The notes under the pieces were generated by a model. That model searched no databases. It was not told where the DNA came from and saw only the letters and a list, made by a program, of their open reading frames with translations. A stretch of DNA of 64,000 nt. Source: Eledone cirrhosa. Taxonomy: Eukaryota. The stretch lies in the NCBI GenBank assembly GCA_964016885.1, contig OZ024742.1, forward strand, positions 248,496,001-248,560,000. Direction: 5' to 3'. Shown here piece by piece: positions 26,675-62,364 of this stretch; the stretch's first letter is position 1; each line of letters starts with the position of its first letter. Both the position numbers and the translations under genes were made by a program.

Positions 26675-26836
26675 GTAACCAGTAAGACCCCGACAGCTGA
26701 GCTCAAGCCCTTTCGAAACGGCTTGAGCTCAGCTGTCGGGGTCTTACTGGTTCCTATTACCCACTCTACTATCTCAAGTATTGAGTACTTTGGTGCGTTA
26801 TGGTCCACCTGGTTCCTTACCACATTTCCTTCGTTA
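26675..26836 (+). mobile_element. (TA)n-flanked Penelope-like terminal fragment with fold-back (half hammerhead)
   Basis: 76-bp palindrome 26677-26752 centred on TTTCGAAA; the arm reads GAAA-CGGC-TTGAGCTCA-GCTG-TC; homologous copy in inverted orientation at 27801-27988. Confidence 0.65.
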
Positions 26837-27800
26837 TATATATATATATATATATATATATATTTATATAAATATATATATATATATATATATATATATA
26901 TATATATATATATATATATATATATATATATATATATATATATATATATATATATATATATATATAAATATATCCATGTATGTATATATGTATGTGTATG
27001 TATATGTTTATATATATATATATATATATATATATATATATATATATATGTTTGTGTATACTGTTATATGGGAAAAAAATAAAATAGAAACTTATCAATT
27101 TATTACGATGTTCCGACTGCAGTTTCGCTGCGTAATTCAATATTCTAATAGTTTAAGAAATTACCGACTGCGAGACCTCACAGCTCCCCACAGAACTACT
27201 CCTTCGAAGAAAATATTATTTCAAGTTAAACGTTGCTAGTGATAATTTCAAATTACCACGTGTTAAACCTAACCTTCAACGGAAGGGTAGTAGTAGGCGG
27301 TCAGTGCCGAGTAACGGGGCTGCTAGATGAAGCAGTTCGTTTCAGCCTATTTTATTCAACCGTGAGTACAGCACAAAATTATTGTATATATATATCTATC
27401 TCTCTCTGTGTCTCTCTCTCTCTCTCTCTCTCTCTCTCTCTCTCTCTCTCTCTCTCTCTCTCTCTCTCTCTCTCTCTCTATATATATATATATATATATA
27501 TATATATATATATATATATATATATATATATATATATATATATATATATATATACATATATATATATATATATATGCACACACACACACACATACACACA
27601 TATATATATATTTCCACGTGAAATTAATAAACATTCGTTGTACTGCCTCTCTGTTTTGTTCCTGTTCAAATTTTTCCATTATATATATATATGTATATAT
27701 ATATATATATATATATATATATATATATATATATATATATATGTATATATATATATATATATATATATATATATATATATATATATATATATATATATAT

Positions 27801-27988
27801 AACAAAGGATTTGTGGTAAGGAACCAGATGGACCATAACGCACCAGAGTACTCAATACTTAGGGTAGTAGAGTGAGAAATAGGAAAAAGTATGACCCCGA
27901 CGGCAGAGCTCAAGCCGTTTCGACGTTTATTTCTGGACAAATAGCCGTCGAAACGGCTTGAGCTCTGCTGTCGGGGTCATACTTTTTC
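27801..27988 (-). mobile_element. Second copy of the same (TA)n-flanked family, with fold-back 27883-27988
   Basis: Reverse-complement homology to 26715-26836; inverted repeat centred on an imperfect hairpin. Confidence 0.65.
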
Positions 27989-28489
27989 ATATATATATAT
28001 GTATATATATATATATATATATATAAATATATATGAATATATTGGTGGTGCGAATGTGATGAAGATGAGGATAAGAACATGAAGAAGAAATGTCGGAACT
28101 CCATTCTGCTCAACTGAAAATAGGCCTTAGTTATCCGTACTAAACTAGTCAACATTACATAGCCATTAATAATACAAGAAATATTTTATAAGTTGATGAC
28201 ATACATAATTGAAGTCTGTTGTGGAACAGAATGTCCGCTTTATTGAATATCTTTATTTCTATAAGTATAACATGCCTTAAAGTAGAAATGATATTATATC
28301 GGAGGAAAATTTATGTATGTTAAGTATGAAACAATTTTGTACGCTGTTTATAGGATTGGGATCAGTGTTAGGGCTCGAGTGAGAGTTAGGGTAAGATTTA
28401 GGTTTAAGGTTTACGCCGGTCCCAAGTAATGTTTAACGGATTGTCTAATCTGCTCGACGATTTGATCTAAATATTTACCAGAGCGAGTG

Positions 28490-28876
28490 TGTGGCTTGGC
28501 AAATTGGTAGATCGTCAAATACAATGACGTTGCCTTATTTGTTCAAGTTATTTACATTCTGAGTTCAAATCCAATTGAGGCCAACTTTAGAATAAAAGAA
28601 CAATCAAGCAGTGGCGTTGGTTCAATTAACGTTGCCTTTCTCCCAAATTTATTGGCCTTGGTCCTTAATTAGAAATAATTATTTAGGGTGGATGTGCAGT
28701 ATCGGTAGAAGGCCTGACGCCATGCTTTGCAACAAAGAGTTACGGCGCTTTATGGTCTGAGTTCAAATCCCGCCGAATTTAACTTTGCCTTTCATATTAC
28801 GGGGTCGATGAAATAAAGCACCAGTAATACACTGGGATAATTGCTGGCCTTGTGCCAAAAGTAGAAACAGTTATTT
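28490..28876 (+). mobile_element. Two tandem SINE copies (one decayed, one typical)
   Basis: GAGTTCAAATCC B-boxes near 28561 and 28759; GGCCTTG..AGAAA tails. Confidence 0.75.
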
Positions 28877-29415
28877 AGCAGAGTGATGCTGCTCGACATG
28901 AACACCGTACATCATTTGATTTTTTGGAAAGCGATGTTCATATCTTGAAATATAAAACAACTTGTAAAAGTTTAATATGTTGTTTTGCTTTCTGTCTATT
29001 TCTTTACCTTACTCTATTGGAGATTACTCTATTATAATTATAACTTGCATATTACCGTATTTTCCAAATCAATCATGACCACATTTCCTAACTATGTATT
29101 ATATAAACTATGTATATATGTAAAGTCACGTAACACCATGTGGAGACGTATGGGTACCAATGAGATACACGGTATTTCTGGGGCATTGTTTAAAACCTGG
29201 CGGTTCCCATCTAAATTCCCGCTCTCAACAGCCAATTTCTCCAGAGTAAAAGAGATTGTGTGAGAACAAGGATGTACGAAAGAGAAACAGAGAATGAATC
29301 GAACCAAGTACTGGACTGATGCTTACTTTATCAACCTCGAAAAGACGAGAGGCAATGTGACATCGAATATAAAGTATATATTTATACATGTGTATGGGTA
29401 TATATGTAAATATAT

Positions 29416-59599: not shown

Positions 59600-59957
59600 A
59601 TTATAGGGCGGGTAAAATTCCCGAGATCCATGGACGAGATCTCTCCAGCGGTCTCTGTCCCTCATTATAGCTGTCATGTCCTGCGTCTCCAACAGACCAG
59701 TGTCTGTACTTAGGGCATCAACATCCGTTAAAGTTGGTCTTCCTCTTCCATTGTGTCCATGTAGGGACTCCCACAGGAGCACTGAGTTCAATGTCAACTC
59801 TGGATGTCCGTGAGCATGTCCAGCCATCCTCAATCTCATCTGAGCTGACTTTGGCAGGCTCCCATACATCTCTGAGTCCTTCATCCTCAGTGTATACTGA
59901 TTAATGTTCAAAGCTATCTTCAGCATTCTCGTGTAGCACCCATCCACCATCTGAGTT
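59600..59957 (-). mobile_element. RTE-like LINE 3' fragment
   Basis: DGCYTRML..MYGSLP..RLRMAGH..LLW..HG..RGRP..DTG..RDRWR; TA-flanked. Confidence 0.8.
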
Positions 59958-59993
59958 ATATATATATATATATATATATATATATATATATAT

Positions 59994-60280
59994 ATAGAAA
60001 GATTTGAATGGATACAGTTTAGTTGAAAGGAATTTATTGACACGTGTTTCGATAACAGTTACATAACCTAAAACAGCTGCTATCTAGCTGTTTTAGGTTA
60101 TGTAACTGTTATAGAAACACGTGTCAATAAATTCCTTTCAACTAAACTGTATCCATTCAAATCTTTCTATTTTTCTCCGGATTACTTTTGGAACTACAAC
60201 TGGAACCGTCGAGCAAACTCTACGTGAGCTGATAATCTACTGTGTGTAATATTTATATTACAACACAACGGAAACTACTG
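59994..60280 (+). mobile_element. (TA)n-flanked element with 177-bp fold-back and mirrored half hammerheads
   Basis: Palindrome 59994-60170; each arm reads GAAA-CACGTG-TC-AATAAA; the right arm continues to (TA)n at 60281. Confidence 0.75.
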
Positions 60281-61374
60281 TATATATATATATATATATA
60301 TATATATAAAATAATTAAGTCAAGTATGTAAAATTTGGCTTCCGAATTGGTGTGGGAAAGACAGGTACACATATATCCAGCTCCTGGTTATGTTGTTATT
60401 CCTGGAATGATATTCACATATATATATATATATATATATATATATATATATATATTTATATATGAAATGTTATATTAGTGTTTACAAATATCCGGGTAAA
60501 CTTTTTAGAAGCCCGATACTAATTAATATCCTTGGTCAATTGGTAATCCAAAAAGCTGGATGATTGTCAACCTCCGTAGACTAGGTTATAGACTTTTATG
60601 GTACGAAATGAAGAGCTCACAATTCAGATAGTATAACAATGGCTAACCAGTTAGGATTTACAACATTATTTTACACTACGAATGTTTCAATGTAGGATGG
60701 CGTCACAGTAGATATTCTGAGGACCGGCCCGTTGCTCTATATATCAACAGGAGCATAGATGTTGAAATCGTTCAAATACAAAAAGCAAAAGGTGACATTA
60801 TAGTACAGGTCAGAATCATAAAGCAAAAAGCAAAAACCATGATGTCTTTTGTTAATACTTTAAAACGCGACTAACAGTGTGCTTAGAAATAGAAGAAGCA
60901 GTGAGATAAACAAATAAGAATAGAAAATAAAAAAATATCAAATTTCAATACTCCATTGTATGAATCTAAATGTTACATTTAGACTATATATTCAGAACAT
61001 AGCTAATTAGCTTGGGAGAGGGGTTGTTACAAGCCTAAAGCGTTAAGCGGTTTTTATTTAAAAAAAAAAAAACTTAATAAGGATCAGTGGTTAGGAGCTT
61101 CCATAGATGCAGAGAATCAAAAACATGGGATGTTTATGTAAACAAACACAAGAATTTTAAGATAAAGGAAAGAAGGAAGAAACGGAAGCAAATGGTAAAC
61201 TTTGTACGTGCAATAATTGGTTAATGAATATACAGATGTAGGCGAGGTGTACGAACACAAAAAGGGTTACATAAAGCCCAACTCTTCACAAGAGCGAGGA
61301 ATTATCCGTTAAAACAAAGTGGATAGATTAAATAGTAAGATTATCCAGTGTTCAGATAAACTTTAGTTGTGTAA

Positions 61375-61883
61375 TCATAATATAATAAAGGGAGGAGTGC
61401 GGGACTCCGTCCTGAATATATTTTTTTTATCCCGTTTTTAAAATAAGCTGGATTACTTTGAATAAATAATGAATGAATATTACATAATCTATGTATTAAA
61501 TTTCGTAACTCTTTATTTAATATAAATAAGTTTATTACTCATTTCGAGATTCACTTCTTTAAAATTTTCAAATGTCAACACTTCCGGTTAGCGTCCGTTA
61601 TATTCTAACATTTATTACATCGCTTATATAAATGTTCATGTATTTGCTTCGTTATATAAAGTTTATATTTCTGTCGCTAATTCTCTCCTATTTCGTTTTC
61701 ATGAAATTTCGCCGTAATGCAGTTTATATATAGTATCCTCTTTTTTAAATATATCATGGATTACTTTACTGATTACGAAAGAGAGTGTAACATAGCCTCT
61801 CTTCAATTTCTGTGTATATTCTCAATTATGATTTTATTTGATGTATGATATCTAAATGCATATATATTTGGTTTTTCTGCTAA
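61375..61883 (+). mobile_element. Non-autonomous Helitron-like element (homologue of 6516-6974)
   Basis: A|TC..TATAATAAAG start; shared internal blocks; ends GGTTTTTCTGCTAA|T. Confidence 0.65.
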
Positions 61884-62364
61884 TACATGTTAATAAATAT
61901 TACCTCACTGATTGTTAAGAGAGAGCAGGAAACTAAATATATATACTTATATATACCTATTGTGGAAGTACTTCCAAACAGTTCCATGGACTGAGTGCTA
62001 TCCTACTACGGATATAACCCACCAGTTTTCTACTATATATATATATATCCAGGGAGTGTGACCTGAAGTTACTTTAGGTTCACCCACGTGAGCACTCGAT
62101 GTTTAGTTTCACGTCTGTAGAGAGATGTAGAGCTAGACAGAGTGTAAATATAATAATACATGGACAATTTGTTTAGCATGCATTCCGTTTCTTGATTGGT
62201 GACGCATGTTTCGCTATTGTCATTAGAACAGAAGAGGTCCGACGACCTTTTGATTCCAGAGTCGGGCCAGAGCGATACAGATCGAACCTTGGCGAAACGC
62301 GCGTAACCAATCAATAATTGTAATGAAGGTTTGAAAAATCTTTCTTATATTATTATTATATATG

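Follow-up and report, generated by a model that had tools for sequence, protein, structure and literature searches.

Penelope-like elements (PLEs) are already known to form head-to-head palindromes with a one-sided tail (PMC3846280, PMC8557442; here and below, cited papers are drawn on for selected sections). In rotifer Penelope elements, head-to-head palindromic junctions between pseudo-long terminal repeats (pseudo-LTRs) were attributed to self-priming (Arkhipova et al. 2013, PMC3846280). In vitro, the Poseidon PLE of Anolis cuts and extends both strands, starting at two internal sites that delimit the tail (Frangieh et al. 2024, PMC11167929). There is no settled account of how the inverted ends arise: a 2013 study proposed self-priming, two-strand internal priming was obtained in vitro in 2024, and a link to palindromes is absent from the sections of the 2024 paper covered here. 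An internal promoter of initiator (Inr) type is described for D. virilis Penelope (PMC2377424), a U3-A8 hammerhead core is reported for Schistosoma PLEs (Cervera and De la Pena 2014, PMC4209133), and Hydra-1_Obim is listed as a Hydra family in PMC8557442. Here, we analysed five fold-backs of such elements in a 64,000-nt stretch of the Eledone cirrhosa genome (contig OZ024742.1, positions 248,496,001 to 248,560,000, forward strand), hereafter called the window.

Each of the five fold-backs is made of one short and one long arm and lies in (TA)n. They belong to four families, named A (26677 and 27883), B (44472), C (59994) and D (62192). In this 3.0-Gb genome, rich in TA repeats, the arms have fixed 3′ ends with a TA overlap, pair short with long, stop 5′ at family-specific walls, carry an extra G there and come from one source per pair. 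The fold-backs are head-to-head short and long 5′ pseudo-LTR pieces of PLEs, probably generated by twin priming on one RNA. A preliminary description of the window had recognized the palindromes at all five places, with GAAA-stem III-NUH downstream of every axis and, in most cases, one arm longer and ending at (TA)n, and had read them as 5′ inversions of PLEs; all of this was borne out. We reject its mechanism, a snap-back of nascent complementary DNA (cDNA) on stem II of a hammerhead ribozyme; the feature is real, its architecture is known, and the evidence on mechanism is useful and new. Contigs of short reads sequenced separately (in one study, perhaps on the same animal) span a 27883-type axis, so this axis is not an artefact of the present assembly alone.

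Arm ends, pairing and the base at the wall

Positions in all families are numbered from the G of GAAA. In family A, the 3′ ends of the arms are fixed, at about +42 for short arms and +105 to +125 for long arms; the two sites are about 80 nt apart and both end in TA. For the 5′ limits of family A we took the first 100 motifs in genome order, which lie in the first 14.4 Mb of one chromosome. Eighty-two arms stop within 24 nt of GAAA, three stop at 25–59 nt and 15 run through the whole ribozyme. Breakpoints are thus unevenly spread in this family, as the preliminary description had foreseen (70 of the 100 lie 11–24 nt before GAAA), and the wall is near −18 to −22, inside loop II. Among 35 arms of family B, 22 end at −50 to −63, five are shorter and eight longer, and the wall lies about 40 nt upstream of the ribozyme core. 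In family C, the axis falls in the apical loop of stem II at only 11 loci, that of the window included, compared with 3,151 arms genome-wide. Many copies of family D, in a set chosen by likeness to the query, start near an Inr-like word about 95 nt upstream. The wall is thus family-specific and not tied to stem II. The walls of A, B and probably D begin at pyrimidine-A in words that resemble the Inr consensus. At two family A junctions (L163 and L170), the wall is directly preceded by long T runs, which suggest slippage where the template ends.

Pairing was analysed in 69 head-to-head pairs of family A. A short arm is joined to a long arm in 63 of them, two short or two long arms are never joined, and six pairs contain one unclassified arm; 34 of the 38 G-bearing pairs, classified by script, are also short plus long. 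In 17 of the 63 pairs, the short arm outreaches its partner on the 5′ side by 15 nt or more, and in four it is the long arm that does so. The arms do not overlap in seven family A pairs. In this unbiased set, centres differ from copy to copy, that of 26677 being present in only one of the 69. Perfect loop-less palindromic centres like the one at 26714 are found in five of the 69 pairs (a sixth match is a TA run), and mirror-image centres occur. Subfamily tags of the two arms were identical in 39 of 53 scorable pairs, compared with 9.9 in shuffles; both arms of a pair therefore come from one source. Four loci (L013, L009, L189 and L203) show short reiterated pieces at the palindrome centre, as if re-primed repeatedly before joining.

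The base before the adenine at which the wall begins (hereafter wall A) was counted by hand in 68 family A cases with the partner arm trimmed to −11. It was G in 38, the native T in 23 and A in seven (G versus A, p = 3e-6); C was omitted because the partner arm supplies it. The same design applied to a trimmed site gave four matches, with G in one. The untemplated G stands on the long arm in 25 of the 38 cases and on the short arm in 13, so that either arm can arrive at the RNA end independently of the other. An extra G is a recognized mark of an RNA cap. As the short arm holds sequence or a G that is absent from the long arm, the inverted 5′ part was probably templated independently of the 3′ part.

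Proposed twin priming and its alternatives

The fold-backs probably formed in the following way. The endonuclease would nick both strands of (TA)n, and reverse transcription would be primed by each target 3′ end at an internal position of the RNA: the short site for one end and, about 80 nt away, the long site for the other, the interval corresponding to the PLE ‘tail’. Both cDNAs would run off the 5′ end of the RNA, likely a capped start at a pyrimidine-A initiator-like motif, and their ends would be trimmed and joined, often via microhomology. In family A, the presumed start happens to fall in loop II, downstream of the core, so that the RNA would never have held the 5′ half of the ribozyme and the arms would lack the core. 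The start of family B would lie upstream of the ribozyme, which both arms would then retain. The tens of thousands of copies amount to a natural record whose pattern favours twin priming under a strict short-plus-long rule, and the exact priming sites and the candidate start site are all testable predictions on PLE movement.

Several points weigh against this reading. The capped start site, though likely, is a putative one deduced from genomic DNA, and overlapping arms require displacement synthesis or two RNAs of one source. Family C is without a wall near its ribozyme, some family A arms run 2–6 nt beyond wall A or carry T runs, and the 100-motif sample covers only the first 14.4 Mb of one chromosome. 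The G-bearing set also held three short-plus-short pairs, one of which looks misclassified, and one long-plus-long pair. At direct (TA)n junctions, the base before wall A is T in 192 cases, C in 27, G in 12 and A in six, so that G is not dominant there. In family B, hand counts gave G before the wall in 91 of the first 100 of 131 cases, but the partner arm may have supplied about 44 of these 91, and short duplications about 20. Finally, the main rival is that palindrome centres were deleted or flipped after insertion, which could produce the same asymmetry of the arms.

Such later changes belong to the general self-priming published for PLEs, which would take place at the RNA end, on an antisense template or cDNA, the centres being flipped or deleted afterwards as palindromes are unstable. 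Head-to-head palindromic junctions are so read in PMC3846280. The two arms have one template, as self-priming expects, and mirror-image centres are what arm-arm recombination would give; however, frequent later flipping of arms of about 50 bp would be needed to place G on the short arm in 13 of 38 cases, along with one-sided deletions biased against the long arm (17 versus 4), and centres without a loop are hard to prime. We find this explanation rather unlikely. In the form given in the preliminary description, nascent cDNA would snap back on native stem II and self-prime, the ribozyme structure setting the breakpoint and the ribozyme being destroyed. That the arms of a pair come from one template also suits this form, the wall of family A does fall in loop II, and the axis of 59994 is within the apical loop of the long family C stem II, where one of the 11 such loci keeps the whole native loop. 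Nevertheless, such a snap-back would have to retain the native loop, and a genome-wide search for family A products with that loop gave no match to the exact pattern, which diverged copies would escape. Short arms, which often outreach long ones, also bear the extra G in some cases. Folding back of the long cDNA could not supply a short arm with additional 5′ sequence, and the 17 versus four pairs therefore speak against it, as do the seven pairs with non-overlapping arms. The wall of family B is equally sharp outside the ribozyme, about 40 nt upstream of a core left whole in both arms, and family C lacks a stem II hotspot, with 11 loci for 3,151 arms. Snap-back on stem II is largely refuted and has very little probability left.

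Twin priming might also have met a wall of another nature, either a reverse-transcriptase (RT) stop or a cut in the RNA, in place of a capped start. The wall is fuzzy by a few bases and (TA)n junctions show a weak excess of G, both of which suit a stop or cut, and reverse transcriptases are known to add C at ends without a cap. On the other hand, the pyrimidine-A of Inr-like words at the walls of A, B and probably D, the concentration of G additions at wall A and the unlike structural settings of the walls argue for a start site, and we consider a stop or cut unlikely. It is extremely improbable that the palindromes are fixed non-autonomous elements, comparable to miniature inverted-repeat transposable elements or Helitrons, multiplying as units. 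At least 30 near-identical copies do have the 26677 centre, but they were chosen by likeness to the query; centres of the unbiased set vary from copy to copy, with one in 69 like 26677, and the sequence is the pseudo-LTR of a 3.1-kb element with RT and GIY-YIG endonuclease.

Beyond twin priming of these fold-backs, we tentatively consider a wider possibility. Insertion of Hydra-type PLEs might be an obligatory two-ended priming, one strand per fixed site, in which case the classic inverted repeat with its one-sided tail would directly record how an asymmetric enzyme dimer sits on a single RNA. Were the family A promoter also inside the ribozyme, the 5′ copy could not cut and cleavage by the complete 3′ copy would remove the priming sites downstream, perhaps diverting the enzyme to tens of thousands of short palindromes.

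Families, ribozymes and the palindromes of the window

An exact search for the stem III-NUH motif of family A gives 47,498 copies genome-wide. Another pattern search, with 36,187 matches, counted every arm and shows only that the pattern search works. Copies reading past the long end lead to units of 3.1 kb flanked on both sides by pseudo-LTRs, of which the family A arms are pieces. In the open reading frame (ORF), read by eye from frameshifted copies, RWR, DKT and YRDD are followed by GIY-YIG-like motifs; alignment with homologues displays a CxCx5C linker and CxxC and CxH around conserved E and N. A young copy, a near-identical tandem family A unit of subfamily A2, is located at 4300–7500 of locus L193. 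Family C reads into a similar ORF, whose RT has RWK and DKT, the read stopping before the endonuclease end. A homologue search with ORF pieces returned six proteins, mostly unnamed; Pfam and PDB searches with such pieces gave no significant match, and a DNA search using the family C arm gave none. The motifs tie families A and C to putative Hydra-clade PLEs, and insertion into (TA)n is a property of that clade. Among the loci examined, families B and D displayed no read-through into an RT/endonuclease ORF, and their PLE identity rests on architecture.

We compared 25 native copies of the family A ribozyme. The core is TTGA-N-AA in 23 of them, position 7 being T in seven, C in six, A in five and G in five; the copies have a stem I, a stem II helix of 9 bp and a loop II of about 33 nt. 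The predicted fold of two natural copies contains stem II in both and stems I–III in one, and the exact core UUGANAA has 4,672 matches genome-wide. Family B, with core TTGAAAA and stems I–III read by eye, has a minimal U3-A8 hammerhead. Families A and B thus display UUGANAA, a free position 7, stems I–III and NUH, as in U3-A8 type I hammerheads, and self-cleavage is putative. The preliminary description had assumed a CUGANGA half, replaced in the palindromes by a reverse complement and present 5′ of the hairpin in non-inverted copies. This could hold for family C, the only one with a canonical CUGANGA-type core (CTGATGA at −98, with a long stem II; the UUGANRA pattern had no match there), but not of families A and B, which use UUGANAA. 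None of the 25 native family A copies carries CUGANGA, which, the native core being the U3-A8 variant, was never there. CTGANGA lies within 34 nt of a family A GAAA in 63 matches genome-wide, and the 30 that we viewed are junction products, none with native upstream sequence. For family D, no hammerhead core or stem I partner was found in the approximately 165 nt of upstream sequence shared by two long copies. An Rfam scan gave no hammerhead, only hairpin look-alikes, among the 150 of 259 matches listed, and a canonical-core scan of the window gave one unrelated site. Scans based on CUGANGA overlook abundant U3-A8 ribozymes. A canonical-core minimal hammerhead is located at 5334–5400 of the window, on the minus strand; at another locus (L199), this motif precedes a Hydra-type ORF.

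In the window, the family A short arm at 26677–26714 (minus strand) extends from the fixed site at about +42, joined to (TA)n, to GAAA itself, and the long arm at 26715–26834 (plus strand) carries GAAA, stem III, GUC, the 3′ strand of stem I and an 80-nt tail to the fixed site at about +120. They agree at 37 of 38 ungapped positions and meet, with zero spacer, on the self-complementary word TCGA. The second family A palindrome (48/53 agreement) joins a long arm at 27802–27938 (minus), with a 5′ limit at −17 in loop II, one base short of wall A, to a short arm at 27939–27988 (plus), limited at −11. Its centre, taken earlier for native stem II, consists of these two 5′ ends. In family B (117/133), the long arm at 44410–44623 (minus) ends at −62, the family wall, and the short arm at 44624–44735 (plus) ends at −24. 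Both carry a complete U3-A8 minimal hammerhead with core TTGAAAA (44575–44581 minus, 44628–44634 plus), so that the ribozyme half thought to be missing here is not. The family C palindrome (84/88), from a Hydra-type PLE, has its short arm at 59994–60086 (minus), with a 5′ limit at −36 in the apical loop of the long stem II, and its long arm at 60086–60280 (plus), limited at about −28; the CTGATGA of the family is absent from this copy. In family D, the long arm at 62048–62219 (minus) has been cut back to −7 from GAAA at its 5′ end and terminates at (TA)n, and the short arm at 62218–62347 (plus) extends 76 nt upstream of GAAA, which makes the centre non-palindromic; agreement is 27/61, the match being limited to the outer 22 nt or so. 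True extents are larger than first described, where long-arm ends had been omitted. Placing the axis on stem II was correct for family A, where it lies in loop II of a real hammerhead fold, but not for 44472, whose axis falls outside stem II, at distances of 24 and 62 nt from GAAA on the upstream side. Likewise, the imperfect hairpin described for the centres is indeed lacking at 26714, but at 62192 the centre consists of some 70 nt from the usual 5′ sequence of the family, confined to one arm.

Other repeats were observed in the window. Three further head-to-head palindromes of other families (30717–31224, 48313–48649 and 50172–50889) have hammerhead cores downstream of their axes, which lie about 70–190 nt upstream of the cores. 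At 48313 and 50172 each arm has a CTGATGA or CTGAAGA core, and at 30717 one arm has a core and the other a one-base variant. A single non-inverted family B copy with a variant core (40702–40834) starts at the family wall. Inverted repeats of other families are present at 36663–36800, 57444–57687, 21787–21895, 34029–34923 and 63247–63331, in which a core scan found no hammerhead core. The region 10127–18193 is a tandem duplication of about 3.9 kb with 96.8% identity (10414–14306 and 14321–18193), bounded by (TTA)n, and may be a partial-tandem element. A repeat of about 200 bp in more than 10 copies, resembling a short interspersed nuclear element in size and spread, occurs at 3650–3880, 28676–28880, 34153–34356, 34604–34800, 38248–39096, 42281–42775, 53141–53416, 56732–56943, 62348–62553 and 63318–63512.

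Comparison with described elements

In the literature searched, where most subscription papers lay outside reach, we found neither the short-plus-long rule nor a loop II start site described, nor any report that links twin priming with Penelope. Hydra-clade PLEs with a C-terminal endonuclease (Craig et al. 2021, PMC8557442) share with family A a unit of about 3 kb with a single ORF for RT and C-terminal GIY-YIG and the CxCx5C linker, and with families A and C RWK-like and DKT motifs and (TA)n targets. A hammerhead in the pseudo-LTR, an inverted 5′-truncated copy and a one-sided tail are also common to both. By that account, the hammerheads of the clade are canonical, whereas families A and B have the U3-A8 core; the tail is 30–40 nt there and about 80 nt here, and short head-to-head pieces predominate here. 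Hammerheads of the Schistosoma Cercyon PLEs (PMC4209133) display the same U3-A8 covariation in the core, and ribozyme pairs 100–700 bp apart on opposite strands were noted there too. What sets family A apart is its long stem III, together with a loop II of 33 nt in which the 5′ wall is located.

Rotifer Penelope elements (PMC3846280) also have inverted pseudo-LTRs, palindromes at the junctions, a tail on one arm and an Inr-like word in the pseudo-LTR. Self-priming on an antisense template was proposed there from few copies, whereas the present data favour two separate priming events on sense RNA. A biochemical parallel to our proposal is Poseidon (PMC11167929), in which both strands are cut and extended from two internal starts bounding the tail, with uncleaved RNA as template. 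Poseidon belongs to another clade and its start sites have no homology to the target, whereas both sites end in TA here; joining into palindromes is undescribed in the sections of that paper covered. Twin priming of L1 (reviewed in PMC10760644) likewise involves two priming events at the target, joining by microhomology and an inverted 5′ part. In contrast to L1, both primers would here start at fixed internal sites near the 5′ end of an RNA, the arms mostly overlap and so give palindromes, and there is no poly(A) tail.

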